Shown: positions 8,253 through 23,935, counted from the stretch's first letter. The stretch is DNA of 24,000 nucleotides from Parasediminibacterium paludis (GCF_042651445.1 NZ_JBHSDC010000002.1:679148-703147), one strand, 5' to 3'. Notes: generated by a model not told the origin, from the sequence alone. Made by a program: numbers and translations.

Positions 8253-8657
8253 CTACCACTCAAAAGTGATGTCTAGTTCCATATCTGGGTGTAAACTTCT
8301 TTCTACTGGGCAAGTACGTGCTACACGTTCTAGTATTTCTTTGGTTTTATCATCTAAATTTAAAGATTTAGACATGGTTACATGTGCTTTTATGCCCCCA
8401 ATTCTACGTGGGTCAGCCTTCATAATTTTCGTGATGTCTACCTTTGAGTCGGTAAGGTCAATATCCATGGAATTAGCTTTAATACCCATAGTAGTAAGCA
8501 TGCAACTACCCAAAGCAGTAGCTACCATATCTGTAGGGCTAAAACGTTCGCCTTTACCCATATTATCGGTCGGGGCATCGTTTTCTATCACTGAAGTACT
8601 CTGTAAGTGTGTCATCTCTGTTCTTAACGCACCTTTATAAATTACGGTTGATGTCAT
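8253..8657 (-). CDS. OsmC/Ohr family peroxiredoxin-like protein
   Basis: 134 aa with two conserved Cys contexts (LGSCMLTTM and ARTCPVERSL) at OsmC-family spacing. Confidence 0.85.
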   Translation of the reverse strand: MTSTVIYKGALRTEMTHLQSTSVIENDAPTDNMGKGERFSPTDMVATALGSCMLTTMGIKANSMDIDLTDSKVDITKIMKADPRRIGGIKAHVTMSKSLNLDDKTKEILERVARTCPVERSLHPDMELDITFEW

Positions 8658-8694
8658 TTGACTAGATTTTATATAAATTTACAAACACAAATAT

Positions 8695-9531: not shown

Positions 9532-9671
9532 TTTTTAATTACTATATTAAGGAAATCATACTTACTAATCAGTAATAGGTTAATTTCCTATCAGTTTACA
9601 TATGTTTTAGCATCATCAGCCAAGCATTATTGTATCAAGTCATCGCTTAAATAGGCTGAGACATTTTCATT

Positions 9672-10739
9672 ATGGCAATTCAAAAAATAACGATTCAAGC
9701 ATACTTACAAGAACCACATAATTACTTATTGCTAGATGTAAGAAGTCCGGGTGAATATGCACACGCACATATACCCAATGCCATCAGTTTGCCATTATTT
9801 AATAACGAAGAACGAAGTGTTGTGGGTACCGCCTACAAACAAGAAAGCCGTGAAAATGCTATAAAAATTGGTCTGAAATATTTTGGACCAAAAATGGCAG
9901 AAATGGTAGAGGCAGTTGAAAAAATTTTAGCTAAACATAACCGGAAACCGAACAGCCCTAGTGCTACAAGTACAAAAATAGTGGTGCATTGCTGGCGAGG
10001 CGGTATGCGTAGTGCAGGCGTTGCTTGGCTTTTAGATTTATATGGCTTTGATGTATACACCATAATTGGCGGTTATAAATCTTACCGACATTGGGTAATG
10101 CAACAGTTTGATAAAGACTACCACTTTAAAGTCGTTGGAGGCTTTACTGGTAGTGGTAAAACAGAAATATTACAAATATTAAAGCAGGCGAATGAAGTGG
10201 TTATTGATTTGGAAGCATTAGCACAGCACAAAGGCTCCACGTTTGGTAATCTAGAGGCCATTCAGCAACCCTCACAAGAAATGTTTGAGAACATGCTAGC
10301 AATGGCATTGTATGCCGCTAATGACCGCATTATTTGGCTAGAAGATGAAAGTCAACGTATAGGAAATGTGACCTTACCCAACATACTATATCTTAAAAAG
10401 CAATCTTCGATGGTGTATTATATTGATATCCCTTTTGAAGAAAGATTACAGCATTTAGTAGCTAGCTATGGCAGATTCAAAAAAGACCAAATTGTAGCAG
10501 CCATTATGCGTATAAAAAAACGTTTGGGGGGCTTAGAAACGAAAACGGCTATAAATTTTCTTCTAGAAGATGATATACAACATTGCTTTGCAATTTTATT
10601 ACGCTACTACGATAAATACTATTTAAAAGGGTTAGAACAAAATAACCGACAAATTAAAAAAATAACCTGTAATACGGTAAATGCAGTTTGCAATACAAAC
10701 AACCTGCTTGCTATTGTAAAAGAAGAAAAGGCATTATAA
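9672..10739 (+). CDS. selU: tRNA 2-selenouridine synthase
   Basis: 355 aa. N-terminal rhodanese domain with active-site HCWRGGMRS, followed by the P-loop GGFTGSGKT. This is the YbbB/MnmH architecture, and the gene is adjacent to selD. Confidence 0.9.
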   Translation: MAIQKITIQAYLQEPHNYLLLDVRSPGEYAHAHIPNAISLPLFNNEERSVVGTAYKQESRENAIKIGLKYFGPKMAEMVEAVEKILAKHNRKPNSPSATSTKIVVHCWRGGMRSAGVAWLLDLYGFDVYTIIGGYKSYRHWVMQQFDKDYHFKVVGGFTGSGKTEILQILKQANEVVIDLEALAQHKGSTFGNLEAIQQPSQEMFENMLAMALYAANDRIIWLEDESQRIGNVTLPNILYLKKQSSMVYYIDIPFEERLQHLVASYGRFKKDQIVAAIMRIKKRLGGLETKTAINFLLEDDIQHCFAILLRYYDKYYLKGLEQNNRQIKKITCNTVNAVCNTNNLLAIVKEEKAL

Positions 10740-10808
10740 CACCATCTCATTTCTGGTACTTGGTTAACCTCAATTATTTATTTTAGAATTTAAGAAACAC
10801 AACAATCA

Positions 10809-11882
10809 ATGGCAGCAAATTCAAGTATACCCAATCTTAGTGAAATTAAGTTAACACAGTATTCGCATGGTGCTGGTTGTGGCTGTAAAATTTCGCCTAA
10901 GATGCTCGATCAAATATTGGCCACCAATTTAGCCACACCAGATAATGATAAATTGATAGTTGGAAACCATAGTAAAGATGATGCTGCTGTGTATGATATG
11001 GGTAATGGTACGGCGCTAATTGCCACTACTGATTTTTTTATGCCCATCGTTGACGATCCTTATAATTTTGGTAGAATAGCCAGCGCTAATGCCATTAGTG
11101 ATGTTTATGCAATGGGCGGAAAGCCCATATTGGCAATTGCGATATTGGGTTGGCCTATTAATATTTTGCCGCCAGAAGTAGCACAACTAGTAATTGAGGG
11201 CAGCCGTAGTATTTGTAAAGAAGCGGGTATTTCACTGGCTGGCGGTCATAGTATTGATTCCCCAGAACCCATTTTTGGCTTAGCGGTTAATGGCATTGTG
11301 CCTATTGCAAACATTAAGCAAAATAATACAGCACAGCAAGGCGATATACTTTTTCTTACTAAGAAAATAGGGGTTGGTATTTTAACCACTGCAGAAAAAA
11401 ATGGCTTACTAGCAGAAAAGGATACAGCATTGGCCGCTTTACAAATGATGCAATTAAACAAAGTGGGTGAAGCATTAGGTATGATGAAAGAAGTCCATGC
11501 AATGACAGATGTAACTGGTTTTGGTTTACTAGGACACTTGACAGAAATGGCAGAAGGAAGTGATGTAAGCGCAGCCGTGCATTTTGATAAAGTACCATTA
11601 ATAACCCACGATTTGCCAGCCTACATTGATAAAAAATGCGTTCCTGGTGGTACCAATAGAAATTGGGATAGTTATGGCAGCAAAATAGCATTTGCTACTG
11701 GTATCAATCAGGTTTATACAAAAGCCATATTAGCCGATCCGCAAACGAGTGGTGGCTTGCTCATTGCAGTTGCACCAGAAGCCGCTGAACAAGTACAAGC
11801 ATTATTACTATCGCACAATTTATATGCTGAGCCAATAGGTGTGATTACTGAAAAAAATGAATATGTGGTAACTGTGGTGTAG
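10809..11882 (+). CDS. selD: Selenide, water dikinase (selenophosphate synthetase), Cys-type
   Basis: 357 aa, alignable along its whole length to E. coli SelD by eye (LTQYSHGAGCGCKISPK..., TTDFFMPIVDDPYNFGRIA, GGHSIDSPEPIFGLAV, MTDVTGFGLLGH, DPQTSGGLL). The catalytic position is a TGT Cys codon (10878-10880), not TGA. Confidence 0.95.
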   Translation: MAANSSIPNLSEIKLTQYSHGAGCGCKISPKMLDQILATNLATPDNDKLIVGNHSKDDAAVYDMGNGTALIATTDFFMPIVDDPYNFGRIASANAISDVYAMGGKPILAIAILGWPINILPPEVAQLVIEGSRSICKEAGISLAGGHSIDSPEPIFGLAVNGIVPIANIKQNNTAQQGDILFLTKKIGVGILTTAEKNGLLAEKDTALAALQMMQLNKVGEALGMMKEVHAMTDVTGFGLLGHLTEMAEGSDVSAAVHFDKVPLITHDLPAYIDKKCVPGGTNRNWDSYGSKIAFATGINQVYTKAILADPQTSGGLLIAVAPEAAEQVQALLLSHNLYAEPIGVITEKNEYVVTVV

Positions 11883-12030
11883 TGGTAATAGAGGTAGGGA
11901 AGGATTTTTAAAAGATATTTTGCTCATGCAAAAGCCTAAAAGCCAAGAATATTGCGAGTCTGTAAGACTATTTAAATATGACTGCAAAATGGCGTATGAA
12001 ATAAGCTTAATTACTATAAGATATTGTAAG

Positions 12031-12057
12031 AAGCGTACCAGTTTGGTGCGCTTTTTT
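12031..12057 (+). terminator. Rho-independent terminator ~150 nt downstream of selD
   Basis: AAGCGTACC (12031-12039) pairs with GGTGCGCTT (12045-12053) with one G-U pair, across a 5-nt loop. It runs into a TTTTTT tract (12052-12057). Confidence 0.7.
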
Positions 12058-12078
12058 GTTTTTGGGTAAATGGAAGAT

Positions 12079-12310
12079 AAACTAGAGTCACCAAAAAGCA
12101 AGTATGAATTCGCTATAGCGAACTGTAGTCACCAAAAAGCAAACTAGAGTTATAAAAAAGCGAGCATGAGTACACTACAGCGAACTGGAGTCACCAAAAA
12201 GTGAACAGGGGTTACCAAAAACAGAACTCAAGTCACAAAATTTGGAACTCGAGTTCGTTCCAGCGAACTGTAGTCACCAAAAAGCAGATTAGAGTTCTAA
12301 ATATGGAACA
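12079..12310. repeat. Degenerate tandem array of ~11 units of 20-21 bp, approximate consensus AACTNNAGTCACCAAAAAGCG
   Basis: The best-conserved copies contain AGTCACCAAAAAG at 12087-12099, 12127-12139, 12189-12201 and 12272-12284. Diverged copies are GTTATAAAAAAG, GTTACCAAAAAC and GTCACAAAATTT. A ~62-bp higher-order period is visible: 12081-12141 resembles 12142-12203. No ORF is present. Confidence 0.8.
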
Positions 12311-12362
12311 ATAAGAATGAAAATGATACTTGCAAGCGCAAATCTAGTGGATGCAAGAAGCG

Positions 12363-12758
12363 TTAGCTGGTTCCAAGAGCAAAAAAGGTGATTGCATGAG
12401 GTGTTTGGGTGCATACAAAAAGCTTGAGTTGCTTGTAAGAAGGAAAATAGTTGGTAAAAGAAGCTGTAAGTGCTTTTAATATGTATTTTGGTTGATGGAA
12501 GAACTTAAAGTACAAGTTTTCTCTGTAATGTACCACGCCATGTAAAATGGGCTTTTGTATGGCATCTTCATCCACAACAGCAACTTTTAATGTATTGCCT
12601 TGTGCATCAAAAATTCAAGACAAAAGCCATAATTTCCTTTTAAGTCTTTTATTACTTCCACAATTGTAGCTACATCACCTTTAATAAAACCTAACTCAGG
12701 TAGATCTTTTGCTAATTGTATTTCGGTATATATTTCAAAATTATTTACGGTACATCAT
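12363..12758 (-). pseudogene. DUF4926-like small gene, frameshifted
   Basis: Minus-strand reading gives ...NNFEIYTEIQLAKDLPELGFIKGDVATIVEVIKDLKGNYGFCLEF. The frame then breaks at an A5/T5 run (12609-12613) and continues in another frame as DAQGNTLKVAVVDEDAIQKP... (the 12363..12575 track ORF). The ATGATG at 12753-12758 is out of frame with the body. Family assignment is from memory of the DUF4926 pattern (DLPE.GL.KGD.GTIV...EF.D..G.T). Confidence 0.55.
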
Positions 12759-13071
12759 TTATACAGGATATAAATTTCCAAAACGAAAAGTATTATCTGG
12801 CAATTCTTCTAACTAAATTGTAATAACTAATTTGCTTCTCAAAGCATCAACAACAGAAGAATATAAATTATCAAAATCACTTATTCTTGATAAAATAAGA
12901 TCATTTTCTGTCGCTAGTTATTTAATATCAGCTATCAGAATTTCAAAATTTCCTTTGTTATAGCCTAGGCTTTCAAGGAAAATTGATTTGCCATTTTTTA
13001 ATATCCTAACCAAAAAGATAGTCGGTAATTTTTTCTTCTGAAATAGTTATTTGTTCAAGAGATAACCACAT
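12759..13071 (-). pseudogene. DUF6883-like small gene, with one frameshift and two in-frame stops
   Basis: From the ATG (complement of 13069-13071): MWLSLEQITISEEKITDYLFG*, then a frame shift to ...LVRILKNGKSIFLESLGYNKGNFEILIADIK*LATENDLILSRISDFDNLYSSVVDALRSKLVITI*LEELPDNTFRFGNLYPV*. The skeleton (KLTDYLL...GK..F..LGY ... W....P.RF.T.YP) resembles DUF6883 as I recall it. Confidence 0.5.
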
Positions 13072-13105
13072 TAAGTATATTTTGTTGAATAACGATATTG
13101 AATAT

Positions 13106-13134
13106 AAAAAAGCCCCTGCATCTCTGCAAGGGCT
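13106..13134 (-). terminator. Rho-independent terminator of dnaK
   Basis: AGCCCCTGCA (13111-13120) and TGCAAGGGCT (13125-13134) form a 10-bp stem with a 4-nt loop. The single mismatch is a G-U pair only on the minus-strand RNA. The A-run at 13106-13110 gives the U-tail on the minus strand. It lies 39 bp after the dnaK stop. Confidence 0.8.
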
Positions 13135-13172
13135 TCATCATTCGTATCATTTAAATCACTACAATCAGCGGT

Positions 13173-15074
13173 CTATTTTACTTCTTCAAACTGTGCATCT
13201 TCTACTGTATCGCTTGCAGTTTGTGTACTAGCACCTTGGCCAGCAGGCTCTTGTGCAGAAGCACCACCTTGAGCTTGCGCTTTGTAGATGTCTTCGCTTG
13301 CGGCTGTCCATGCAGTGTTCATTTCAGCCATCGCAGTATCAATTGCAGCAATATCTTGATTTTTGTGTGCCTCTTTCAATTTCGTTAATGCCGCTTCAAT
13401 AGGTACTTTTTTATCAGCAGGTATTTTGTCGCCAAACTCTTTAAATTGTTTTTCAGTTTGGAAAATTAGGCTATCAGCTTGGTTGATTTTCTCAACTCTT
13501 TCACGGGCTGCTTTGTCAGCAGCTTCATTCGCTTTTGCTTCCGCTTTCATTTTTTCAACTTCTTCTTTGCTCAAGCCACTACCAGCTTCAATACGTATGT
13601 TTTGCTCTTTACCAGTGCCTTTATCTTTTGCACTTACATGCAACATACCATTCGCATCAATATCAAATGTTACTTCAATTTGCGGTACACCTCTTGGTGC
13701 TGGTGGTATTCCATCTAAGTTAAACATACCAAGGCTCTTGTTTTGGCTAGCCATTGGGCGTTCACCTTGCAATACATGAATTTGTACACCTGGTTGGTTA
13801 TCGCTTGCAGTTGAGTAAACTTCAGTTTTCTTAGTAGGGATGGTTGTATTGCTTGCAATCATCGTAGTCATTACACCGCCCATCGTTTCAATACCAAGAC
13901 TTAAAGGTGTTACGTCTAATAGTAATACATCTTTTACTTCACCAGTTAATACACCACCTTGTATCGCAGCACCTACAGCTACCACTTCGTCAGGGTTTAC
14001 GCCCTTATTTGGTTTTTTGCCAAAGAATTTCTCTACAATTTCTTGTACTTTAGGGATACGTGTACTACCACCTACTAATATTACTTCGTCAATCTGAGAA
14101 ATACTATAACCAGCATCTTTCAACGCAACTTCACATGGTTTTAAGCAACGCGCAAATAAATCATCAGCTAAAGCTTCAAATTTAGCTCTGCTTAATTTTT
14201 TTACTAAGTGTTTAGGTACACCATCAATAGCTGTGATGTATGGTAAGTTAATTTCAGTTTCGTTACCGCTACTTAATTCAACTTTAGCCTTTTCAGCAGC
14301 TTCTTTCAAGCGTTGTAATGCCATAGGATCTTTGCGTAAGTCAATCGCTTCGTCAGCTTTAAACTCATCTGCCAACCAATCCATGATTACTTTATCAAAG
14401 TCATCACCACCTAAGTGTGTATCACCATTGGTGCTTTTTACTTCAAAAACGCCATCACCAAGTTCCAATACAGAAATATCGAATGTACCACCACCAAGGT
14501 CAAACACAGCAATTTTTTGGTCTACGCTCTTCTTATCTAAGCCATAAGCCAAAGCAGCCGCTGTAGGTTCGTTTACAATACGTTTTACATTTAAACCAGC
14601 TATTTCGCCAGCTTCTTTTGTCGCCTGACGTTGTGCATCGTTAAAGTAAGCAGGTACAGTAATTACCGCATCAGTTACTTCAGTACCTAAATAATCTTCA
14701 GCAGTTTTTTTCATTTTTTGCAACACCATCGCAGAAATTTCTTGCGGTGTGTACAATCTGCCATCAATATCTACACGAACGGTATTATTGTCACCTTTTA
14801 CTACTTTATAACCCCAATGGCTTATTTCTTCTGTCACCTCATCAAATCTTCTACCCATGAAACGCTTTACAGACGCAATGGTGTTTTGAGGGTTTGTAAT
14901 AGCTTGACGTTTAGCAGCATCACCCACTTTACGCTCGCCATTTTTCAAAAAGCCAACAATTGAAGGTGTGGTTCTACGTCCTTCCTCATTAGCTATTACA
15001 ACCGGTTCGTTACCTTCCATTACAGAAACGCAACTGTTCGTTGTTCCTAAGTCTATACCAATAATTTTGCCCAT
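13173..15074 (-). CDS. dnaK: Molecular chaperone DnaK (Hsp70)
   Basis: [16 protein letters not shown]..., [22 protein letters not shown] and the full Hsp70 layout. The start is trimmed from the track's 15110 to the ATG at 15074, which restores the canonical [15 protein letters not shown]-terminus. Confidence 0.98.
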
Positions 15075-16023: not shown

Positions 16024-16107
16024 GCCCAGATGGCGGAATTGGTAGACGCAGCAGACTCAAAATCTGCCGTTCGCAAGGATGTGCAGGTTCGATTCCTGTT
16101 CTGGGCA
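16024..16107 (+). tRNA. tRNA-Leu (anticodon CAA), class II with a long variable arm; CCA not encoded
   Basis: Acceptor stem GCCCAGA/TCTGGGC, D-arm GCG-GAATTGGTAGA-CGC, anticodon stem GCAGA/TCTGC with loop CTCAAAA, T-arm GCAGG-TTCGATT-CCTGT, discriminator A. Confidence 0.93.
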
Positions 16108-16108
16108 C
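16092..16108 (+). repeat. attL core (17-bp direct repeat, part of the functional tRNA)
   Basis: ATTCCTGTTCTGGGCAC, identical to 22386-22402. Confidence 0.85.
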
Positions 16109-16113
16109 TTTTT

Positions 16114-16156
16114 AAAAACGCTGAAAATCAATGCTACATTGAGTTTCAGCGTTTTT
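16114..16156 (+). terminator. Hairpin terminator following the tRNA, carried by the insert
   Basis: AAAAACGCTGAAA (16114-16126) pairs with TTTCAGCGTTTTT (16144-16156) across a 17-nt loop, followed by a T-run. Confidence 0.65.
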
Positions 16157-16168
16157 TATTTATCCTAC

Positions 16169-16192
16169 ACTTACAGTTTTACTGACAGCTTT
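16169..16192 (+). promoter_or_regulatory. Subterminal 24-bp repeat, left copy (candidate recombinase arm-type or accessory site)
   Basis: ACTTACAGTTTTACTGACAGCTTT matches 22251-22274 (ACTTACAATTTAACTGACAGTTTT) at 21 of 24 positions in the same orientation. Confidence 0.55.
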
Positions 16193-16213
16193 GTAATTTC
16201 TTCTTTTTATAAA

Positions 16214-16249
16214 AAAGCCTACTTGAAATCAGCGTTTCAAGTAGGCTTT
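16214..16249. other. Perfect 15-bp-stem hairpin (bidirectional terminator-like)
   Basis: AAAGCCTACTTGAAA (16214-16228) and TTTCAAGTAGGCTTT (16235-16249) with a 6-nt loop. An A-run lies before it and a T-rich stretch after. Confidence 0.6.
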
Positions 16250-16351
16250 CTAATTTTCGTATTTCTCTCATTAACGATTATAACAGACAATACAAGTCAA
16301 TTCAAGTAAACAAATAAGTAAATTAATTAGTCAATAAACCGTACTATTTAT

Positions 16352-16801
16352 ATGAGTAATAAGCTAAAATGTATCTATTGCGGTACTGAATATCCGTACC
16401 GAAAAAATAAGGTGTATTGTTCTCCAAGCTGTAAAACAATGGCTTATAGAGACAGACAAGCTGGCAAAACTATTTTGGGTGAAATGCCAAGTGAAAACTA
16501 TGATGTTGAGCGCAAAGCCTTTTATATGTCCGATTATGAAGGGTGGCAGTATAAAGATGATTTTTCTTTTCAGATATTTTGTTTCTTAATAAAGGGATTG
16601 CCCGAAAATACAAATGAAACCTTTTTGAGAAATTATGCAGCCACAATAGTAAATGATAATAGATTTTATGAGCAAGTTGAAGAAAGTAACCACCCAATAG
16701 GTAAGGAGTTTAAGAAATTTCAAGAACTATTTTTTCAAAATAAATATCAAATTAAAAACGAAAGGTTGTCTGAAAAAATGCAGCCTATAAATCAAAATTA
16801 A
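16352..16801 (+). CDS. Hypothetical protein with an N-terminal 4-Cys zinc ribbon
   Basis: 149 aa. CIYCG-x12-CSPSC followed by KTMAYRDRQ, a C-x2-C...C-x3-C ribbon of the FCS/TRASH-like kind seen in small mobile-element proteins. The rest is unrecognisable. Confidence 0.65.
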   Translation: MSNKLKCIYCGTEYPYRKNKVYCSPSCKTMAYRDRQAGKTILGEMPSENYDVERKAFYMSDYEGWQYKDDFSFQIFCFLIKGLPENTNETFLRNYAATIVNDNRFYEQVEESNHPIGKEFKKFQELFFQNKYQIKNERLSEKMQPINQN

Positions 16802-16812
16802 AAAAATATACT

Positions 16813-17004
16813 ATGGCAAAGAAAATCTTTAAGCTAATCAATGCAGCAACAAAAATTACAGAACTAAGAGACTTTCAAAAATTCAAATTTGAAAATCTGA
16901 AAGAAGGTAGTGAGCAATGGAAAATAGAATATCAATTGTTTTTAGAGTATGACCTACTCGTAAATGTAATTAATGACCACAACGATGGGAGCAAAACTTT
17001 GTAA
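16813..17004 (+). CDS. Hypothetical small protein (63 aa), 11 bp downstream of the zinc-ribbon ORF
   Basis: ATG ORF in a tight tandem arrangement, followed by a strong terminator. No recognisable motif. Confidence 0.5.
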   Translation: MAKKIFKLINAATKITELRDFQKFKFENLKEGSEQWKIEYQLFLEYDLLVNVINDHNDGSKTL

Positions 17005-17008
17005 TTTT

Positions 17009-17041
17009 AAAAGCGGTGAAGTTATCCTTCACCGCTTTTTT
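17009..17041. terminator. Bidirectional terminator between convergent ORFs
   Basis: AAGCGGTGAAG (17011-17021) and CTTCACCGCTT (27-37 of the 170xx block) form a perfect 11-bp stem with a 5-nt loop. A's lie upstream and TTTTTT downstream. The stop of the minus-strand 95-aa ORF lies in the loop. Confidence 0.8.
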
Positions 17042-17309
17042 CTTTAAATAAATCATTGTGCATCCGCTGAACTTCATGTTCCATAATATCAAAAATTTGC
17101 TCTTTTAATTTTGATATTCTTTCAGTTCCATTATAAAGAAGACCACCATCAATTTCATATAAAATAGACATTGCTTCTGTGCAAGAACCTAAGTAATCAT
17201 CAACCATTTCTTGTTCGCTTTCTAATGAATTATTCTCTAATTCATCATCATTCTTTTTTTCGTTTTCCATTTTTAAATTTTTAAAAAGTTCTTGTAGTAA
17301 GTTACTCAT
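17022..17309 (-). CDS. Hypothetical highly acidic small protein (95 aa)
   Basis: By my count 23 Asp/Glu against 10 Lys/Arg. There is an acidic N-terminal tract (ENEKKNDDELENNSLESEQEMVDD). The ATG is embedded in an 11-bp inverted repeat of the iteron motif. Confidence 0.6.
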   Translation of the reverse strand: MSNLLQELFKNLKMENEKKNDDELENNSLESEQEMVDDYLGSCTEAMSILYEIDGGLLYNGTERISKLKEQIFDIMEHEVQRMHNDLFKEKSGEG

Positions 17310-17481
17310 CTTACTACGTTACTACAATTGTAGTAAGATGCTAATTTTTATCTTACTACGCTAAAAATCAAACCAATAAAGGGTTTTGTTGATTTTGTAG
17401 TAAGTTGTAGTAAGTTGTTTTTTCTATCTTACTACACTAAAAGCCAATGCAGTAAAGGCTTTGACGGTTTTGTAGTAAGAT
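17292..17481. promoter_or_regulatory. Iteron field: at least 9 copies of GTAGTAAG/CTTACTAC in both orientations (candidate origin of replication or operator array)
   Basis: ATCTTACTAC at 17308-17317, 17350-17359 and 17426-17435. Its complement GTAGTAAGAT at 17330-17339 and 17472-17481. TTGTAGTAAGTT at 17292-17303, 17395-17406 and 17405-17416. A variant GTTACTAC at 17318-17325. The field lies between the stop of the primase gene (17491) and the start of the 95-aa ORF (17309). Confidence 0.75.
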
Positions 17482-17490
17482 AAAAGTGAA

Positions 17491-19605
17491 TTATACCTTT
17501 TTTATATAGTAACCTTTAACGGGAAACATTTTTTCTAGCCTTTTTGTACCTCTCACAAACCCTAATTTTTTAAGTACACTACCTATTTTTTTAAGACTTA
17601 GTTTGTTTGTATTTGCTCCTTTATGAATAACCATATATTGCAAAATGTCGTTTGCAGTCATAAAATTGCTTTCCTCTTGTTTACTATCAATAGCAAAATA
17701 TGTTGTAATCATTTCCTCCTCAATACTGCGTTCTTCGTAATCCCTATTTATTTCTTCGTTTTCCCTTTTCTCATCTAAGGTTAATTGATACTTAAAGCCA
17801 TTATCAAACAGGTATTTCGCTTCACACCAAACCTTATTTATATCAATATAATTGGGGCTGCCCTTTAACCAGTAGCCCTGTTCAAAACTATCAATCTCAA
17901 AACATAGCCATCTTGCGCTCCCTGTATCATCATTTAAAAACTCATCATTATTGGTACTACCTAAAAAATTAACTCGTCTAGGGTGAAACTGGCGGCGGCG
18001 GCCATAAGGTAAACGCTCGTTTATACTGGCCATACTTATTTTCGCTTTTAGTTGGTTTACATCGTATTTGCTCAAACTGGCTAATTCATCAAGGTTTATA
18101 ATAAAACTTGTTGCCAATGCAATAACTCCGTCTTTATCCATTGCTATATTTTCAACAAAATATTCGTTCAAAGCTGGGGGGCAAAGCCATCTACAAAAAG
18201 AACTTTTACCAATGGTTTGTTCTCGGTTTATAATAACAAAAACATGCTTGTTGAAGTTGTTATTTGTCATTTCTGTAACGGTGCTACATGCAACACAACG
18301 GACTAACATTTTCTTGAAATGCTTATTAAAACGCTCTTGGTTTTTGGCTTTAATTTTCTTACATAATTCGTCAATGTATGAAGGTTCGGTTTGTGGGTTG
18401 TATGTTAGAGAATTGAAATAATCAGTAATGGGATTGAAGAATTTTACAAAATCGCTGTCAAGCAATGATGCAGTTTTTGAAGGCGAATATTTAAAGTAGT
18501 TATGCTCTAATAAACGGCTAATTACATTCTCATTTGCTTCCATCCATAAATTATCATTGCCCTTTGCTTTGTACTCTGTTTTCTCATTTACGATGTTTTT
18601 TCTAAACTCAAACCGTTCGTTTAAAAAGTTTTCAACCTGTACAATTAAAGGGAGGTTTTTATTAGTAGGGTTGGGGTTAATTTGCTCAGTTTCTTTCTTC
18701 GCTTCAACTGTAATTTTCGAGCTGTTATTTGAAATGACAATTCCAAAATCTTTTGCTATACCAAAAAGGCTTTCCCATTTTCTGCTACCATTAGGATTTT
18801 TACAACAAGCTGTGTATTGTTCATCCGTTTTTTGTTGGTTGTAGTTTGATGCAATAGCACTAATTCTTTTAAAATAAGAACGTCCATTTTCACCCAAACC
18901 ATTCGCAATTGCAAAGGCAATGTCTCGCCATTCACTATATCCCTTTCTATTTGTAATATCAATATTTCGGGCTTCTAATTCCTTGCATAAAGCCTCAATA
19001 TCCTGTTGCTTTTTGTCTGTGGCAAATGGTATCTGTTTTCCTGAACTGGTATCTTCTGAAATTATAAAAACAGTGCTTTCTTGGTTGTAATAAAGTTTGC
19101 TATCAGCACTAATAAAAAATGCCCTGCAAACGTCTTTACAAGCTGTATCAATTACAAGGTTATACTTGTATTTAAAATAACTTTCTAGGGCTAAAAATGA
19201 AGGCTTATGCTTTGTGGCATCTATTTTAATGATTGCTTTTAGTCCTAAACCTCTAGGAGATAGAAATAGACTTAAAATAAACGCATCTTGCCTTAATAGT
19301 TCCCTTACGTGGTTGATATTAAAATTGGTTTGGTCTTTTGCATCAATATCAATTTGCATTAAACCGGAATGTTGTTGTAGGCTTTTTGCATCACGTTTAC
19401 CCGGTGCAAATATGCCTGAAAGAGTAGCATAGGGCAAAGCTGCTTTTATTGCGTCCTGTTGCTCACCAGTTGCCTTTCTTAAAGCAATTATTTGCTTAGA
19501 ATATTTACCCTGTTTTATCCAGTCAAGAAAAGTAGAAAGTTCGATTGTAGAATTTTGGTGTTCTCTACTTTTTAAAGGCGATGTGTAGAAAGAAAAATTA
19601 TACAT
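17491..19605 (-). CDS. Replication protein: BT4734-like AEP primase-polymerase N-domain plus a VirE/D5-type P-loop NTPase C-domain
   Basis: 704 aa. The N-terminal region with ...LMQIDIDAKD (DxD-type acidic motif) and ...LSPRGLGLKAII resembles the BT4734/VirE-N primase family. The central region resembles a PriCT-like segment (YSEWRDIAFAIAN). The C-terminal half has Walker A-like REQTIGKS (aa 461-468, nt 18202-18225) and Walker B FIINLDE (aa 501-507). Confidence 0.8.
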   Translation of the reverse strand: MYNFSFYTSPLKSREHQNSTIELSTFLDWIKQGKYSKQIIALRKATGEQQDAIKAALPYATLSGIFAPGKRDAKSLQQHSGLMQIDIDAKDQTNFNINHVRELLRQDAFILSLFLSPRGLGLKAIIKIDATKHKPSFLALESYFKYKYNLVIDTACKDVCRAFFISADSKLYYNQESTVFIISEDTSSGKQIPFATDKKQQDIEALCKELEARNIDITNRKGYSEWRDIAFAIANGLGENGRSYFKRISAIASNYNQQKTDEQYTACCKNPNGSRKWESLFGIAKDFGIVISNNSSKITVEAKKETEQINPNPTNKNLPLIVQVENFLNERFEFRKNIVNEKTEYKAKGNDNLWMEANENVISRLLEHNYFKYSPSKTASLLDSDFVKFFNPITDYFNSLTYNPQTEPSYIDELCKKIKAKNQERFNKHFKKMLVRCVACSTVTEMTNNNFNKHVFVIINREQTIGKSSFCRWLCPPALNEYFVENIAMDKDGVIALATSFIINLDELASLSKYDVNQLKAKISMASINERLPYGRRRQFHPRRVNFLGSTNNDEFLNDDTGSARWLCFEIDSFEQGYWLKGSPNYIDINKVWCEAKYLFDNGFKYQLTLDEKRENEEINRDYEERSIEEEMITTYFAIDSKQEESNFMTANDILQYMVIHKGANTNKLSLKKIGSVLKKLGFVRGTKRLEKMFPVKGYYIKKV

Positions 19606-19634
19606 TTGTGTCCTGTAGGTTTAAGTGATTTTAT

Positions 19635-19660
19635 AGGCTGCTTGGTAGGCAGCCTTTTTT
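19635..19660 (+). terminator. Hairpin plus T6, terminator-like in the plus orientation (faces the primase gene antisense)
   Basis: AGGCTGC (19635-19641) pairs with GCAGCCT (19649-19655) across a 7-nt loop, running into TTTTTT (19655-19660). Confidence 0.5.
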
Positions 19661-19665
19661 ATTGA

Positions 19666-19694
19666 ATAAAAAAGGTGCAACCGTAGTTGCACCT
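19666..19694 (-). terminator. Rho-independent terminator after the Xis/orf75 genes, upstream of the primase gene
   Basis: AGGTGCAAC (19673-19681) and GTTGCACCT (19686-19694) form a perfect 9-bp stem with a 4-nt loop. The A-run at 19667-19673 gives the U-tail on the minus strand. Confidence 0.7.
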
Positions 19695-19715
19695 CCTATT
19701 CAAGATTAATAGGAA

Positions 19716-19943
19716 TTAGCTATTAAAATTCTCGGTTAAATTCAAACTTTTTAAAGTCTTCTTTTTACCAGAACTATCTAGTTCAGCTAATTCAACTCTT
19801 ATGTTCTCATCCTTTTTGATACTGCGTTTACGCAAAATATCATATTGCTTTTCTGCATCGGATTTTGAAGCAAAAGTTTCTTGATACCCTTTTGTTTTAA
19901 CAACGAATTGGGCTGTTTCGCTGCCTTGTGTTTCATTTGCCAT
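19716..19943 (-). CDS. Hypothetical small protein (75 aa)
   Basis: ATG ORF, co-directional with and 46 bp downstream of the HTH gene. Lys/Glu-rich with no recognised motif. Confidence 0.55.
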   Translation of the reverse strand: MANETQGSETAQFVVKTKGYQETFASKSDAEKQYDILRKRSIKKDENIRVELAELDSSGKKKTLKSLNLTENFNS

Positions 19944-19989
19944 GATAATGGTTTTAATGATTAAATAATAATTATTAAAGAGTAGCTAC

Positions 19990-20268
19990 TCACAATTTAA
20001 TGGGCAAAACTTGCCTTGTCTTCAGTGCTTCTAACACTTCAGTTTTGCTGTAAAAAATTTTGTTATCAATACGGGTAAAAGGGATTTTACCGTCATTGCG
20101 CCACTTTTGTAGTGTAGTGGTGCTAATGCTAAAAAGCTGCATTACTTCTTCACTTGAAAGAAGTTTATCCTGTTGAATTTCTCTTTCAGAAAGTACCTTT
20201 CTGACTGTTTGCTCAATTTGAGAAATGAAATCAACTAAAGGGACAGAAATAATAATATTGCCTTGCAT
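19990..20268 (-). CDS. Excisionase/AlpA-type helix-turn-helix DNA-binding protein
   Basis: 92 aa. LLSSEEVMQLFSISTTTLQKWRNDGKIPFTRIDNKIFYSKTEVLEAL is the typical MerR-superfamily Xis/AlpA HTH pattern (..T.LQ.W...G.IP......K..Y....V...L). Confidence 0.75.
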   Translation of the reverse strand: MQGNIIISVPLVDFISQIEQTVRKVLSEREIQQDKLLSSEEVMQLFSISTTTLQKWRNDGKIPFTRIDNKIFYSKTEVLEALKTRQVLPIKL

Positions 20269-20338
20269 AACATTGAAATTGTTAGTGCAAATTGCAATTG
20301 GAATAAATCCTATAAAACTAAATTGGGGGACAAGAAAA

Positions 20339-21028
20339 TTAGTTGTCGGGGGATAGCTTATTTTTTTCTTTCTTCAATGCAAGTAATATTTTTTCTACTT
20401 TTTGGATAGTAGTATCATAAATTAGAACGTCAAAATCATATCCTTTTCTTTCGGCTATATCTTTTCGGGTTTGTTCAGCTTCAAATTTTTTACCAGTTAA
20501 AAAGTGAACCGCAAAACCAATTGCGGTATCATTTTTTTCAAATAATACATTTTCAGATGCTTTAAGAAAGAGTTGTAAAATTTGCTTTTGTTTAATTTCT
20601 TCTTTGGTATGAGAAATGCTTTTAGTTATATCTGTTTTTCTTTTAGCTATGTTGATTTTGTTTTCTTTCCAATACCTTTTTCCCGTTTTATTTTCCATTA
20701 TTTCAATCTCGCTTTTGACAAACATTTCAAAATCGAATAATAATGAAGATGTGTATTCAAAACTCATATATTCCTGAAATTCATTTTTAAAAGGCTGTTC
20801 AATTTGATATTTACAGAAAAATTTTAGATAGTCATTTTCAGAAATTGCTCCTTTTATTTTTTCAAGTAAGTCATATAAATTGTCTAGTTTAAGATTAATT
20901 TCTTCAAAACTGTCTAGCCATTTTGAGAAATTATCACCTTGAAATAATAAGTCGATTGGGTTGTAAATATTATTCTCATAATTCAAAAGTTGTATTCTAA
21001 AACTTTCAATATCAGTTTGTTGTGTCAT
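20339..21028 (-). CDS. Hypothetical protein (229 aa), start 2 bp after the integrase stop
   Basis: ATG at the complement of 21026-21028; the integrase stop codon occupies 21031-21033. Predicted helical and Lys/Glu/Phe-rich. No family recognised. Confidence 0.6.
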   Translation of the reverse strand: MTQQTDIESFRIQLLNYENNIYNPIDLLFQGDNFSKWLDSFEEINLKLDNLYDLLEKIKGAISENDYLKFFCKYQIEQPFKNEFQEYMSFEYTSSLLFDFEMFVKSEIEIMENKTGKRYWKENKINIAKRKTDITKSISHTKEEIKQKQILQLFLKASENVLFEKNDTAIGFAVHFLTGKKFEAEQTRKDIAERKGYDFDVLIYDTTIQKVEKILLALKKEKNKLSPDN

Positions 21029-21030
21029 AA

Positions 21031-22239
21031 TTATCTTTTTTGTGTTCTACTTAATTTCATTATTTCAACTTTATTAAAGTCATCATCGTTCTGTATATAC
21101 TTTTTAAGTGTTTGAAAACTGGCATGTCCTACAACACGCCTAACAACTTCTTGTGGTACGCCTATTTGAATGCAATTAGTTATAAAACTGTGCCTTGCAA
21201 CGTGCCAAGTCATCATTTCCCAAGCCTCAAATATTTCTTCTTTAGTTTGCCTACTTTGCTTTTGTGTGTAGTTAAAAGGTCTTACTAGGTTAGCTTTTTT
21301 ACCTATTTCTTTCAAATAGTCATTACCCTTTTGGTTTGATATTGTAGGCAATGGTTGGTTGTCGTTCCAGTATTTATTAAACAGTTCTAGGAGTTCAGGA
21401 ATAACAGGGATTTTAACAGGTTCGTTTGTCTTTAATGCTACTTTGTTTATAAAGCCATTTTGTAAGTGGATAGGCTTTAACGTTACTAGATCACTATAAC
21501 GCAACCCACAATAGCAACCCATTAAAAATAAGTCTCTCACCCTGTCTAATCGTGGCTCCAGTTCGACTTTTGAAAGTGCAATAATTTCATCGTGTTTTAA
21601 AAAGAAATGGTCTTTACCGTCTTCATTTGGGATTTTCCATTTTAGGTATTGTGAAGTAGTATGAAATGATTTTTCTTTTGCCCAATTGAGAAATGTTTTA
21701 AGGTTCTTAATGTAGAAACCAAAAGAGTTATCATACATGCCTAAAAAGTCTCTAAAACGCTTGTAAAAATCTGCATCAAAATCAGTAAAAGAAATTGGGG
21801 CTGAAAGTGTATCTGAATAGGTTTTCAAATACTTAAAAGTTGTATTGTAGCCCTTTACGGTTCTAGCTGCTTTGTCTGAACCATGACTTTCAATAAATTT
21901 TTGAAATAATGATAGCGGTTTAAAATCTTGTATTTCAATAGAGTTTGACCAGGCTAACTGTGAAACAATACTTTCTTTGTTTACCTGGTGTCCTAAACGT
22001 TCAAACTTTAAAACTATTCCTTCAATTTCATTTTGCTGTTCTTCAAAGATTGCGTTAAACTCATTGTAGTTGGCTCGTGTTCGTTTTACTTTTTGATTTT
22101 CCTTATCCCAATGCTTTTTTTCTATTGCTTGACCTGTACTAATCCTAAAACGGTTACCTTTATAGTGAACAGAATGATAAACCGTAACAGGTTTATCGAC
22201 CGTTAATTTATCCAAATTCAAGTTCAATTTTACTCCCAT
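21031..22239 (-). CDS. int: Tyrosine site-specific recombinase (integrase), Bacteroidota Arm/SAM-like/catalytic layout
   Basis: C-terminal catalytic motifs GLRYSDL (Arg), HVARHSFIT (H-x-x-R) and GHASFQTLKKY (His...Tyr). The N-terminus (VYHSVHYKGNRFRISTGQAIEKKHWD) resembles the Arm DNA-binding domain of Bacteroidota integrases. The start is set to the ATG at 22239 rather than the track's TTG at 22251. Confidence 0.9.
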   Translation of the reverse strand: MGVKLNLNLDKLTVDKPVTVYHSVHYKGNRFRISTGQAIEKKHWDKENQKVKRTRANYNEFNAIFEEQQNEIEGIVLKFERLGHQVNKESIVSQLAWSNSIEIQDFKPLSLFQKFIESHGSDKAARTVKGYNTTFKYLKTYSDTLSAPISFTDFDADFYKRFRDFLGMYDNSFGFYIKNLKTFLNWAKEKSFHTTSQYLKWKIPNEDGKDHFFLKHDEIIALSKVELEPRLDRVRDLFLMGCYCGLRYSDLVTLKPIHLQNGFINKVALKTNEPVKIPVIPELLELFNKYWNDNQPLPTISNQKGNDYLKEIGKKANLVRPFNYTQKQSRQTKEEIFEAWEMMTWHVARHSFITNCIQIGVPQEVVRRVVGHASFQTLKKYIQNDDDFNKVEIMKLSRTQKR

Positions 22240-22250
22240 GATTAAAAACA

Positions 22251-22274
22251 ACTTACAATTTAACTGACAGTTTT
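22251..22274 (+). promoter_or_regulatory. Subterminal 24-bp repeat, right copy (in the integrase leader)
   Basis: ACTTACAATTTAACTGACAGTTTT matches 16169-16192 at 21 of 24 positions. It lies 12 bp upstream of the int ATG on the opposite-strand numbering. Confidence 0.55.
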
Positions 22275-22385
22275 AAAGTTGTATCAAATTTATTGGAATT
22301 TTATTGAATTGTATGAAATATTTATCTACATTGCATTACAGACGAAAAGTAACACAATTGAAAACAAAAGAAATCAACATAATTT

Positions 22386-22402
22386 ATTCCTGTTCTGGGC
22401 AC
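22386..22402 (+). repeat. attR core (displaced 17-nt copy of the tRNA-Leu 3' end)
   Basis: ATTCCTGTTCTGGGCAC, identical to 16092-16108. The upstream sequence does not continue the tRNA. Confidence 0.85.
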
Positions 22403-22416
22403 GATAGAAAAGTATA

Positions 22417-22451
22417 ATCCCCTGTAAATTAAGTGTTTATAGGGGATTTTT
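22417..22451 (+). terminator. Probable original terminator of tRNA-Leu, now separated from the gene by the insertion
   Basis: ATCCCCTGTAAA (22417-22428) pairs with TTTATAGGGGAT (22436-22447) with one G-U pair, across a 7-nt loop, then a T-run to 22451. It starts 15 bp after the displaced tRNA 3' fragment. Confidence 0.65.
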
Positions 22452-23161
22452 GTTTATAGGGGGCAAAGTGAGAAGGATTCGCAAATAATCATGAAAATAG
22501 TTTTTATCGAATGGTGTATATCGATTTCGATTTTAACTCAATCGAACATAATCCTTTTTACTGCTAGATCAAAAGTGTTTCTATCCTTTTTTAAAGGTTT
22601 ACTTGTTGCAGGATGTCTTACACAAGCCTGGTTTTAATAAATTAAAGTTTTATCCAGGGGTAATATGGATTTTTTACTGAGTACGTAATTTTAATAATTA
22701 GCGTTGGAAAAGCCTCTTAAAATAATTATCAATAAGTGCATTTATGCTATAAAATATTTATACTATATCAGGAAAGATTATTTTCAAATGATTGTTCGAA
22801 TTTATATATTAAATTTAATGTTATTATCTGATTTTGAAAAATGATTGTTTTGTAAAGAAAACTATAGACAAGTACAAAGCCATATTTCGATTCCTTTCTG
22901 TTGTAAGCCCTAATTATATACCTTTAGTTACTTACATATGCAACATTGGCATTGTTGTTAGTATTGTTTAACGTTCAAACTTGTTTACAATGCTTATGAT
23001 TTCTAACAAACTCTCTCTAAAATACTAGTCAGATATTTGTTGTTTTCACGTACTTTTAGACTCAATTTTAAGTATTTCTGTAAGAGTGAATAACCAATGC
23101 ACGCTGCCTGCGCAAAGTTTTTTTGTTACAGGCTATTTTTCGAATTAATAATATCTTCAAA

Positions 23162-23935
23162 ATGAAAATTTTAAAAACATTTGTGTTCTTATTTGCTGTT
23201 TTAACGGTAACAAATTCATTTAGCCAGCAATCGCTTTTTAGCCCTCTACAATTTACTAATGGAAAAGGTGATACCTTAAATTATAGATTCCTATTTCCTG
23301 ATTTTAACCCTTCGAGAAAATATCCACTCGTAATTTTTTTACATGGTTCTGGTGAAAAAGGGAATGATAATGTGTCGCAATTAAAATGGGGTGTTTTAAA
23401 CTTTGCAACAGATTATAATTTAAAAATTTATAAACCTTTTGTCATTGCACCTCAATGCCCCATAAACCAAACTTGGTCTAACTTTAAAAGAGATTTGGAT
23501 TTCGCCTATAACGATACTGCAACAAAAGTGTGTGATTTAATATTTGCGCTTATCGACTCAACCATAAAGAAATTTCCAATCGACACAGATCGTATTTATA
23601 TCACTGGATTATCGATGGGTGGCATAGGAACATTTGATTTCATAATTAGGCGCCCTAATCTTTTTGCTGCTGCTGCACCCGTTTGTGGAGCTGGTGACAT
23701 TTCAAAAGTTAATGTAATCAAACATATACCAATGTGGCTTTTTCATGGTGCTGAAGATCCTACTGTAGACGCTAAATATTCTTTAGCAATGGTTAATGCC
23801 TTGACAAAAGCAGGTGCGCATCCCGGTTATACACAATATCCTACGGTTGGACATTTTTCATGGATCGCTGCTTATAGTGATCCAATGTTTATGGATTGGC
23901 TGTTTAGTCAAAACAAAGCGAATAATAAAAAATAG
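23162..23935 (+). CDS. Secreted alpha/beta-hydrolase (carboxylesterase / S9-like serine hydrolase)
   Basis: Signal-like MKILKTFVFLFAVLTVTNSFSQQ; FLHGSGEKGNDN; nucleophile elbow GLSMGG; HGAEDPTV acid; GH near the C-terminus. The start is moved from the track's TTG (23123) to the ATG at 23162. Confidence 0.82.
   Translation: MKILKTFVFLFAVLTVTNSFSQQSLFSPLQFTNGKGDTLNYRFLFPDFNPSRKYPLVIFLHGSGEKGNDNVSQLKWGVLNFATDYNLKIYKPFVIAPQCPINQTWSNFKRDLDFAYNDTATKVCDLIFALIDSTIKKFPIDTDRIYITGLSMGGIGTFDFIIRRPNLFAAAAPVCGAGDISKVNVIKHIPMWLFHGAEDPTVDAKYSLAMVNALTKAGAHPGYTQYPTVGHFSWIAAYSDPMFMDWLFSQNKANNKK

Follow-up and report, generated by a model that had tools for sequence, protein, structure and literature searches.

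The tRNA-Leu(CAA) gene of Parasediminibacterium paludis (Chitinophagaceae), called by ARAGORN and Rfam (RF00005, 59 bits) and adjoining an hscB-like gene, carries a 6.3-kb insert at its 3' end, which we analysed within a window of 24,000 nucleotides (the whole stretch of DNA studied; Table 1). A sequence-only reading had noted that the tRNA's final 17 nt, ATTCCTGTTCTGGGCAC, recur exactly at the far end of the insert, and a repeat search bore this out: the window holds exactly two exact copies and no third even at three mismatches (0.06 expected by chance). As that reading had also described, a terminator-like hairpin, probably the original terminator of tRNA-Leu, follows the displaced copy, and a different, insert-borne hairpin, kept in relatives L090, L092/L093 and L095, follows the intact tRNA. 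The 24-bp subterminal direct repeat that it reported at both ends is real (0 such pairs expected) but is 21/24 identical rather than exact; equivalent repeats lie near both ends of related elements. Likewise, the insert is AT-richer than the left flank (31.5% against 36.5% GC, with 6.3-kb windows of that flank at 35.5–37.4%), but the short right flank is equally low (31.2%). Searches that had been proposed for an empty tRNA-Leu site in relatives and, in viral contigs and the fetched loci, for the attP junction of an excised circle gave no matches. The 17-bp core, together with arm-type repeats at both ends, clearly indicates insertion into the tRNA-Leu(CAA) 3' end by site-specific recombination, and the 6.3-kb insert is almost certainly an integrated mobile element.

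Table 1. Features of the element and its boundaries, numbered from the first nucleotide of the window.
Feature	Position	Strand	Basis or remark
tRNA-Leu(CAA), integration target	16024..16108	+	3' end rebuilt by element
attL core, 17-nt direct repeat, tRNA-Leu 3' end	16092..16108	+	repeat search
Element-borne hairpin (20-nt arms) and T-run, in place of the tRNA's own terminator	16114..16156	+	
Subterminal 24-bp repeat, tRNA-proximal copy; candidate arm-type Int binding site	16169..16192	+	
orf149, N-terminal C4 treble-clef (FCS/YacG-like) zinc ribbon and helical domain	16352..16801	+	Pfam Ecl1/DUF2116
orf63, conserved small protein, co-oriented with orf149	16813..17004	+	
Bidirectional terminator-like hairpin between convergent orf63 and orf95	17009..17039	.	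13 pairs then T-run
orf95, small acidic protein (pI 4.4), downstream of putative origin	17022..17309	-	dN/dS about 0.5
Iteron array, eight GTAGTAAG/CTTACTAC copies, both orientations	17294..17479	.	motif count
Replicase: AEP primase (BT4734-like_N), PriCT_2, VapE/D5-type P-loop helicase, DUF3874	17491..19605	-	Pfam, PHROG
Intrinsic terminator(s), conserved, separating orf75 from the primase	19635..19690	-	five compensatory pairs
orf75, conserved small basic protein between HTH gene and primase	19716..19943	-	dN/dS 0.13
HTH_17 excisionase/AlpA-like DNA-binding protein	19990..20268	-	PF12728 at 2.8e-11; PHROG excisionase families; TIGR01764
orf229, fast-evolving int-contiguous gene	20339..21028	-	start 2 nt past int stop
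Tyrosine integrase (Arm-DNA-bind_5, SAM_5, catalytic domain)	21031..22251	-	PF00589 at 3.5e-12
Subterminal 24-bp repeat, int-proximal copy	22251..22274	+	21/24 identical to tRNA-proximal copy
attR core, displaced tRNA 3' end copy	22386..22402	+	repeat search
Hairpin and T-run, chromosomal, outside element	22416..22448	+	terminator-like fold

ORF calls agreed with the gene order and sizes first described: the minus strand carries Int, orf229, an HTH_17 Xis/AlpA protein, orf75, a terminator, the primase-helicase, iterons and orf95, with orf63 and orf149 convergent on the plus strand. The integrase, whose ATG is likely at 22239, has R251, H350, R353, H376 and Y385 all present (dN/dS 0.12). Int-contiguous genes occur in 35 family loci, where they fall into 25 unrelated clusters, and in relative L095 the contiguous gene and int share an ATGA overlap; we infer that orf229 acts as an excision or specificity factor. 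A match of the HTH protein to phrog_57, the sole match to a head/packaging family, is insignificant (E=0.0038).

As expected from the earlier reading, a single ORF of the element exceeds 410 aa, the 704-aa primase-helicase, in which D86/D88, K467 and D506/E507 are invariant across a 30-sequence alignment (dN/dS 0.09). Pfam and PHROG matches and the conserved catalytic residues thus support the proposed set of intact integrase, Xis and primase-helicase (the helicase part SF3-type, VapE) next to iterons, with the catalytic residues of both integrase and primase-helicase intact. PF19263 was recorded in more distant primase homologues only. Eight of the ten window copies of GTAGTAAG fall within the array beside the primase, against a whole-window expectation of 0.76. 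The array is conserved in position and sequence in four relatives. Among 91 family loci, 50 carry iterons directly after the primase gene, in relaxase-bearing and relaxase-less loci alike, in motifs that vary with the primase lineage. Because they are clade-conserved, lie downstream and have lineage-specific motifs irrespective of relaxase, the iterons appear to belong to the primase lineage, and the array is probably the origin used by the element's own primase-helicase. The terminator noted between orf75 and the primase was confirmed on the minus strand; it is kept with five compensatory pairs across five elements and is possibly a point of regulated read-through.

Among the accessory genes, orf149 is the most constrained (dN/dS 0.05) and belongs to a family of about 40 full-length members that recurs in distant primase loci. 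Foldseek matches to its AF2 model (pLDDT 89) are confined to the zinc ribbon, with no known fold matched by the helical domain, and the protein is a candidate regulator. Orthologues of orf63 are present in L090, L091, L092 and L095 (dN/dS 0.18–0.33).

Searches with Pfam, PHROG, NCBIfam, PADLOC and custom HMMs in six frames detected no relaxase, MobC, coupling protein, capsid, portal or terminase. Even HMMs for relaxase and MobC built from related loci, and one for Toprim, scored below 2 bits in all five clade members when run in six frames. These data support the description of an element without virion, conjugation or relaxase genes, and the profile searches gave no sign of the relaxase/mobilisation or capsid/terminase homologues that might have been hidden among its ORFs. 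Lacking genes for cell-to-cell transfer, the element would have to rely on a phage or on a conjugative element to move.

The recurrence at tRNA genes that the earlier reading had proposed to look for is seen in four diverged relatives (L090, L091, L093 and L095) with the nine-gene layout, in 6.26–6.82 kb, at the same hscB-proximal tRNA-Leu; their primases are 64–85% identical to the element's. The same 17-nt core brackets the elements of L090 and L095, and a 19-nt tRNA-end repeat brackets that of L091. On these comparisons, the element belongs to a small family found in Chitinophagaceae. IMG/VR holds no close relative, with primase identity there at most 39%, and no integrase relative was found in it. 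L092 also holds a prophage-like unit (Int, Xis, DnaD-like, TerS-like, tape measure), integrated in tandem with the element at that tRNA core.

Purifying selection on all element genes (dN/dS 0.05–0.54), intact catalytic residues and the lack of detectable transfer or structural genes together suggest a functional helper-dependent replicon rather than a fossil, an outcome that the sequence-only reading had considered, and the element is likely functional at present. Were it instead a decaying prophage or IME remnant, inactive after the loss of structural or mob genes, the absence of transfer genes would be explained, and copies do decay, since the integrase of the L092 copy is 5'-truncated. This view is nonetheless largely refuted and we consider it highly improbable: the compact nine-gene layout is identical across lineages whose synonymous sites are saturated, no gene escapes the constraint given above, the 17-bp att repeats are exact, and iterons, arm repeats and terminator are conserved. 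Our preferred reading, to which we assign a probability of about 0.4, is that of a functional minimal integrative, self-replicating 'hitcher' element whose most likely helper is a phage. On a signal, Xis/AlpA (with orf229) would direct Int to excise the 6.3-kb circle; the conserved terminator would be read through, allowing expression of the primase-helicase; this protein would bind the GTAGTAAG iterons and amplify the circle; and a helper would be needed for horizontal transfer, with a helper phage packaging the replicated multimers in the manner of a PICMI-like minimalist satellite. Consistent with a phage partner, phages use full-length AEP-VapE primases as replicases (Flavobacterium siphoviruses are one example), the same primase with eight CTTACTAC iterons is found on a viral contig that bears a terminase (L088), and a relaxase accompanies only one of the 33 loci with a full-length primase. 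The tandem prophage-like unit of L092, and a gene order, size and tight int-icg spacing like those of PICMI115, lean the same way. No cos/pac-like DNA is shared between the element and the L092 tandem prophage in the 8.4 kb of phage compared. Of the earlier proposal, a Bacteroidota satellite hijacking a helper or a new minimal replicative element, the bounded, intact and replicative element stands, but a phage helper is not established; the phage remains a tentative choice, and the satellite reading is plausible.

Because the same int-icg-HTH-VapE-iteron core is joined to Toprim, MobC and relaxase genes elsewhere in Bacteroidota, a serious rival is a relaxase-less 'iOriT' IME from an NBU1-like Bacteroidota lineage, which would have kept its excision and replication core and be mobilised by conjugation. 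A relaxase supplied in trans by an ICE or IME in the same cell would then act on an oriT of the element, which might lie in the iteron region or next to it. At loci L066, L070, L077, L059 and L056, int, a contiguous gene, HTH_17, VapE and TGTAGTAA iterons are followed by Toprim, MobC/NikA and a MobA/VirD2 relaxase; such relaxase-bearing IMEs are the nearest architectural kin in Bacteroidota, and several of them have no sizeable intergenic space other than the iteron region ahead of the mob operon. Moreover, NBU1, a tyrosine-integrase IME of the tRNA-Leu 3' end, has a MobP relaxase (PMC5704250), elements of the iOriT kind are recognised as a class (PMC11389934), and two of 22 related relaxase-less loci encode RteC, a regulator known from the circuits of conjugative transposons. 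We nevertheless judge this origin somewhat less likely than a phage-dependent one: none of the five clade members retains remnants of relaxase, MobC or Toprim, so any loss was ancient and stable rather than recent, the iterons follow the primase lineage and are present at many loci without mob genes, the fused AEP-VapE replicase is rarely relaxase-linked and common in phages, and no oriT or nic motif is identifiable in the element. The sequence-only reading had missed the relaxase-bearing Bacteroidota loci with this core, which make conjugative mobilisation in trans a strong rival. Less demanding of partners is a self-maintaining integrative replicon without a dedicated helper, inherited mainly vertically at a tRNA-Leu hotspot, moving rarely by transformation, vesicles or generalised transduction, and maybe retained through a host-beneficial accessory gene, for example in defence. 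The clade is indeed rare in public data (only about five lineages, always at the same locus), defence islands also lie in tandem at the tRNA-Leu site, and the cargo of larger related islands is mostly restriction-modification and Abi; but the accessory ORFs match no known defence family (PADLOC), GC differs between element and chromosome, and selection on int, xis and primase is strongly purifying, which implies that excision and replication are used, and we regard such a replicon as unlikely.

The gene layout matches that of the smallest known phage satellites, here in a freshwater Bacteroidota bacterium. [quoted passage not shown] Compared by gene content only, the element, of a freshwater or soil Chitinophagaceae clade, resembles VEIMEs and tycheposons in being small and integrative, with a tyrosine integrase, AlpA/excisionase and primase-helicase and no capsid genes; VEIMEs are defined by their recovery from purified virions as concatemeric repeats. 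PICMI115 has the order int-iolg-alpA(PF12728)-up1-prim-up2 in 6,110 bp (PMC10803314), and the element, also of ~6 kb, likewise runs from int through a contiguous or overlapping gene, AlpA/HTH_17, a small gene and the primase-helicase to a small gene, with orf229 in the position of iolg/icg and orf75 in that of up1. Further likenesses are an int-adjacent gene drawn from many unrelated families, the ATGA-type overlap in L095, and the lack of capsid-remodelling or packaging genes. The SatelliteFinder PICMI model calls for an integrase (PF00589, PF00239 or PF07508), AlpA (PF05930 or PF12728) and a primase with PF13148 and PF19263, next to fis (PMC10803314); the element has PF00589 and PF12728, but its AEP(BT4734_N)-PriCT_2-VapE-DUF3874 replicase has no match to the DUF3987 (PF13148) and DUF5906 (PF19263) of PICMI, and it lies in tRNA-Leu(CAA) by the hscB-like gene rather than next to fis. 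It differs also in phylum and in its two extra convergent genes, one for a zinc-ribbon protein. PICMI excise and replicate on induction by a helper phage and are packaged as concatemers, behaviour that is putative for the element.

With P4-like satellites and PICI/SaPI the element shares Int, AlpA/Xis, a primase-helicase with an adjacent, putative iteron origin, and direct-repeat integration, at half their size or less. It lacks the psu, delta, sid and epsilon of P4-like satellites (every ORF scanned with PHROG and Pfam), as well as the packaging and interference module of PICI/SaPI (terS, ppi, cpm and cf-PICI capsid genes; Pfam, PHROG), and no Stl/Str-type divergent repressor pair was recognised in it. 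NBU1, of about 10 kb, has the order int - orf2 - orf2x - orf3 - prmN1, similar to the core of the element. Like NBU1-type IMEs, of which NBU1 targets tRNA-Leu (PMC5704250), the element has an Arm-DNA-bind_5/SAM_5 tyrosine integrase of Bacteroidota type and sits in a tRNA 3' end; it differs in its size of about 6.3 kb, in the fusion of its primase domain to the helicase, and in having neither its own MobP relaxase nor a relaxosome accessory protein, with no MobC/NikA, Toprim or remnant of them. The relaxase-bearing relatives L066, L070 and L077 share its core of int, accessory gene, HTH Xis and VapE, followed by intergenic iterons.

A single tRNA gene was placed in the window by ARAGORN, in agreement with Rfam: a tRNA-Leu(CAA), the final 17 nt of which (ATTCCTGTTCTGGGCAC) reappear unchanged at the far end of the insert. 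Allowing up to 3 mismatches, we found no further copy in the 24 kb, and 0.06 would be expected by chance, which rules out a chance origin and bears out the sequence-only reading on this point. That reading had also distinguished two different hairpins, and both are present: one follows the displaced copy of the tRNA end and the other follows the intact tRNA. The 24-bp subterminal repeat that it described at both ends is real (0 expected by chance) but imperfect, with 21 of 24 positions identical; such repeats were found again near both ends in relatives of the element, and as candidates they would fit arm-type Int sites. The claim that the insert is richer in AT than its flanks holds on one side only: GC content is 31.5% in the insert against 36.5% in the left flank (35.5-37.4% in 6.3-kb windows), but the short right flank, at 31.2%, is equally AT-rich. 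Between the displaced tRNA terminator and an esterase-like gene lies a stretch of ~670 bp with ~28% GC, in which every ORF is shorter than 50 aa; the stretch may be a leftover of an older insertion.

Coordinates of the element's features and its immediate surroundings
Feature	Position	Remark
tRNA-Leu(CAA)	16024-16108	plus strand
17-nt core repeat, intact tRNA	16092-16108	
Element hairpin	16114-16156	20-nt arms; after intact tRNA
Subterminal repeat, tRNA side	16169-16192	
orf149 5' segment ahead of the annotated start	16352-16441	upstream ATG at 16352
Iteron array	17294-17479	GTAGTAAG
Terminator between orf75 and primase	19635-19690	
Likely Int start (ATG)	22239	minus strand
Subterminal repeat, int side	22251-22274	
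17-nt core repeat, displaced copy	22386-22402	
Terminator-like hairpin with T-run	22416-22448	after displaced copy
AT-rich stretch	22450-23122	
Esterase-like gene	23123-23935	

The ORF map agrees with the gene order and ORF sizes read earlier: the minus strand encodes Int, orf229, a 92-aa HTH protein, orf75, a 704-aa primase and orf95, and the plus strand encodes orf149 and orf63, convergent with the minus-strand genes. Int (406 aa; likely 402 aa from the tabulated ATG) combines Arm-DNA-bind_5, SAM_5 and catalytic domains with residues R251, H350, R353, H376 and Y385 present, and the 92-aa protein is an HTH_17 excisionase of the AlpA type. The 704-aa protein joins a BT4734-like AEP primase domain to PriCT_2, a VapE/D5-type P-loop domain and DUF3874 (primase/helicase in PHROGs), and its DxD (D86/D88), Walker A (K467) and Walker B (D506/E507) residues are invariant in an alignment of 30 sequences. 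As the sequence-only reading had it for virion, conjugation and relaxase genes, none of the element's ORFs has a match among relaxases, MobC, coupling proteins, capsids, portals, terminases or known defence proteins, and PADLOC assigned it no defence family.

The element's primase matches a protein of Parasediminibacterium paludis at 100% identity, and the same module recurs in four further lineages (contigs L090, L091, L092-L094 and L095/L096), whose primases are 85, 67, 65 and 64% identical to that of the element, and all of which are inserted in tRNA-Leu(CAA) adjoining the same hscB-like gene. Their gene order is Int, an immediately adjacent gene of 205-234 aa, HTH_17, an orf75 orthologue of 69-75 aa (preceded in L090 by an additional 87-aa ORF), primase, a 76-147-aa gene and two convergent genes, and the length bracketed by the tRNA 3'-end repeats is 6,490 bp (L090), 6,816 bp (L091) or 6,258 bp (L095). 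Orthologues are 75-85% identical for Int, 73-76% for the HTH protein, 62-83% for orf75, 44-79% for orf149, 34-43% for orf63 and 35-46% for orf95. Compared with L090, dN/dS is 0.12 for Int, 0.15 for the HTH protein, 0.13 for orf75, 0.09 for the primase, 0.05 for orf149, 0.33 for orf63, 0.54 for orf95 and 0.29 for orf229. These values and the shared module therefore indicate that the element is a conserved, selected unit; the possibility raised earlier of a fossil with a dead integrase or primase is rejected on dN/dS (0.05-0.54), and the residues of Int and the motifs of the primase are intact. A prophage remnant was likewise rejected, as structural genes are absent and the layout is compact and conserved. 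The copy in L092 (1-1556; Logan ERR14847262) seems to be decayed or rearranged on the side that carries int, its predicted Int being without the first ~174 residues so that only residues 175-398 align. A second metagenome scan with the primase returned two short fragments only, at 44-45%.

The orf229 slot is occupied by homologous but very fast-evolving proteins, 16-35% identical versus 64-85% for their neighbours, and a profile search outside the clade found nothing; the gap from the int stop to the start of this gene is 1-2 nt in three elements and 17 nt in L091, and in L095 the two genes share an ATGA overlap. The orf149 family is small (76 matches among 1.8 billion representatives, ~40 of them full length), with members present in distant primase loci too. 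Its N-terminus is a C4 treble-clef zinc ribbon (Pfam Ecl1/DUF2116), and a confident structural model (pLDDT 89) matches only FCS/YacG/HNH-associated zinc ribbons, with no structural match for the helical C-terminal domain. Elsewhere orf149 is annotated as 120 aa (P0065), with a start 3' of the ribbon; because the ribbon cysteines (C7, C10, C23, C27) are invariant across the family, the upstream ATG is the likely start.

Eight of the ten copies of GTAGTAAG in the window lie in one array, where 0.76 copies would be expected for the whole window. This array is kept in position, arrangement and sequence in all relatives, and is absent from the rest of the elements. Across the wider primase/VapE family, 50 of 91 loci carry an iteron array directly 3' of the primase/VapE gene (an 8-mer with at least 4 copies among the 350 bp that follow the primase stop, usually the densest repeat of the locus), and the motif, built on a GTAAG core, varies with primase lineage (TGTAGTAA, CTTACCAC, ATCTTACC, AAGTAAGA, CTAAGTAA and others). 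Because the array is family-wide and its motif follows the primase lineage, the iterons are tied to the primase-helicase, and a replication origin is their best reading; this co-variation, recorded over L001-L089, can serve as a rule for origin annotation in the mobile elements and phages of Bacteroidota. L090, L091, L092 and L095 all keep the intrinsic terminator that separates orf75 from the primase, with five compensatory pairs and a second hairpin after it. Its conservation suggests controlled read-through into the replicase, and it may be a regulated attenuator gating replicase expression.

The layout of the element matches gene for gene that of PICMI115, a 6,110-bp phage-inducible chromosomal minimalist island (int-iolg-alpA-up1-prim-up2) without packaging genes (PMC10803314). 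In PICMIs, the alpA gene is recognised by PF05930 or PF12728, and the int-overlapping or int-contiguous genes (iolg/icg) comprise 13 families of unknown function (PMC10803314). These Vibrio genes are paralleled in the wider family of the element, where 35 loci among L009-L096 have an int-contiguous or overlapping gene (gap -52 to +54 nt, median ~3) and the 35 genes fall into 25 mutually unrelated sequence clusters. The element departs from the PICMI model in its primase domains and in its insertion site, which is not next to fis, and it lacks the signature genes of P4-like satellites and of PICIs. [quoted passage not shown]

The sequence-only reading had proposed either a satellite-like element hijacking a helper phage or conjugative element, or a minimal replicative integrative element, and it is supported in part: the element is probably a functional, minimal integrative replicon that depends on a helper. 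An empty-site/attR 29-mer gave 0 matches in metagenome contigs, an attP-junction pattern gave 0 in viral contigs and fetched loci, and viral contigs contained no close relative and none of the integrase. A PICMI-like phage satellite is our leading reading, at a probability of about 0.4. In the more tentative form of this reading that is described below, the satellite would excise and amplify at the GTAGTAAG-iteron origin by means of its fused AEP-primase/VapE helicase, its multimers would be packaged by a helper phage with the same replicon type, and the hyper-variable int-contiguous gene would act as a helper-specificity or excision switch. Phages, too, use the fused primase as a replicase: over the full length it shares 26% identity with proteins of Flavobacterium siphoviruses. 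A 714-aa primase homologue followed by eight CTTACTAC iterons lies in a 42-kb viral contig from IMG/VR (L088, at 9071-11500) that encodes a large terminase as well, and a 40-kb viral contig from the same source (L100, at 6850-8400) has a VapE gene followed by five copies of GTAGTAAG; these are the iterons that the element itself carries. Such a shared origin specificity of phages and element could make cross-replication possible.

The close rival to the satellite reading is a relaxase-less integrative mobilisable element (IME) of the iOriT class, mobilised in trans by a conjugative helper (PMC11389934), a reading that we consider somewhat less likely. NikA/MobC and a MobA/VirD2 relaxase lie directly downstream in 12 of the 74 loci with enough flank, and three of the family's loci (L066, L070, L077) have the order int, contiguous gene, HTH_17, VapE, TGTAGTAA iterons, Toprim, MobC, relaxase, which makes them NBU1-like IMEs that share the core of the element. 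NBU1 itself has the gene order intN1-orf2-orf2x-orf3-prmN1-oriT-mobN1. It is a Tyr-integrase, MobP element residing in tRNA-Leu (PMC5704250). The element differs from NBU-type IMEs in the absence of a relaxase; among loci with a fused full-length primase only 1 of 33 has one, and six-frame searches with HMMs from the related loci's relaxase, MobC and Toprim genes found no trace in any clade member. At 22 relaxase-less loci sampled from L002-L024 the cargo is mostly restriction-modification and Abi genes, with ORF6N in 2 loci and RteC in 2, and no capsid, terminase or conjugation genes were found around them. RteC-family proteins regulate the excision circuits of Bacteroides conjugative transposons, and their presence is a hint of wiring to conjugative helpers in some members of the family.

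Much genomic-island content in bacteria still lacks an explanation, and helper-dependent "hitcher" elements are believed to make up a large part of it; we know of no experimentally defined phage satellite family in Bacteroidota. A compact chassis of int, accessory gene, Xis, primase/helicase and iterons is conserved across this phylum: it occurs with a mob cassette in NBU-like IMEs, within real phages and, here, reduced to nine genes without transfer functions. Were the stripped form phage-packaged, the PICMI "minimalist satellite" design would reach a second phylum and a different replicase, and would offer a tractable system on how one chassis changes helper. We propose only tentatively that the element founds a Bacteroidota (Chitinophagaceae) family of PICMI-like minimalist satellites of 6.3-6.8 kb, resident in tRNA-Leu and packaged as multimers by a helper. 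If so, Bacteroidota satellites and NBU-like conjugative IMEs would be built on one int-icg-Xis-VapE-iteron chassis that changes between phage and conjugative helpers through gain or loss of the mob cassette. A culture of Parasediminibacterium paludis may exist, because it is a named species in NCBI.

The tRNA-Leu site is also used by other elements in the relatives. The junction next to the tRNA in L092 is a hybrid att (GGTGCCCAGAACAGAAGTCGCACCT), and a prophage-like unit (6600-15019), integrated in tandem at this core, separates the element from the tRNA side. Its products are an Int (438 aa, 29% identical to that of the element), Xis, a DnaD-like initiator, a TerS-like protein and a tape-measure protein (1,417 aa or longer). 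This unit is absent from L093, whose primase is identical to that of L092, and it is either a candidate helper or a mere co-user of the hotspot. Over the 8.4 kb of phage compared, no cos- or pac-like DNA is common to the L092 element and its tandem prophage, which have only an 18-mer in common, within coding sequence (the HTH gene of the element and a phage ORF). Beyond attR in L095/L096 (1-7253) there is a second integrase (354 aa), on the opposite strand. The genes that come after it (reverse transcriptase, PRTase-CE, BubE, ThiF and E2-like) resemble a defence island that occupies this hotspot in tandem. L091 (1-1881) has only a second integrase (355 aa) before the contig ends.
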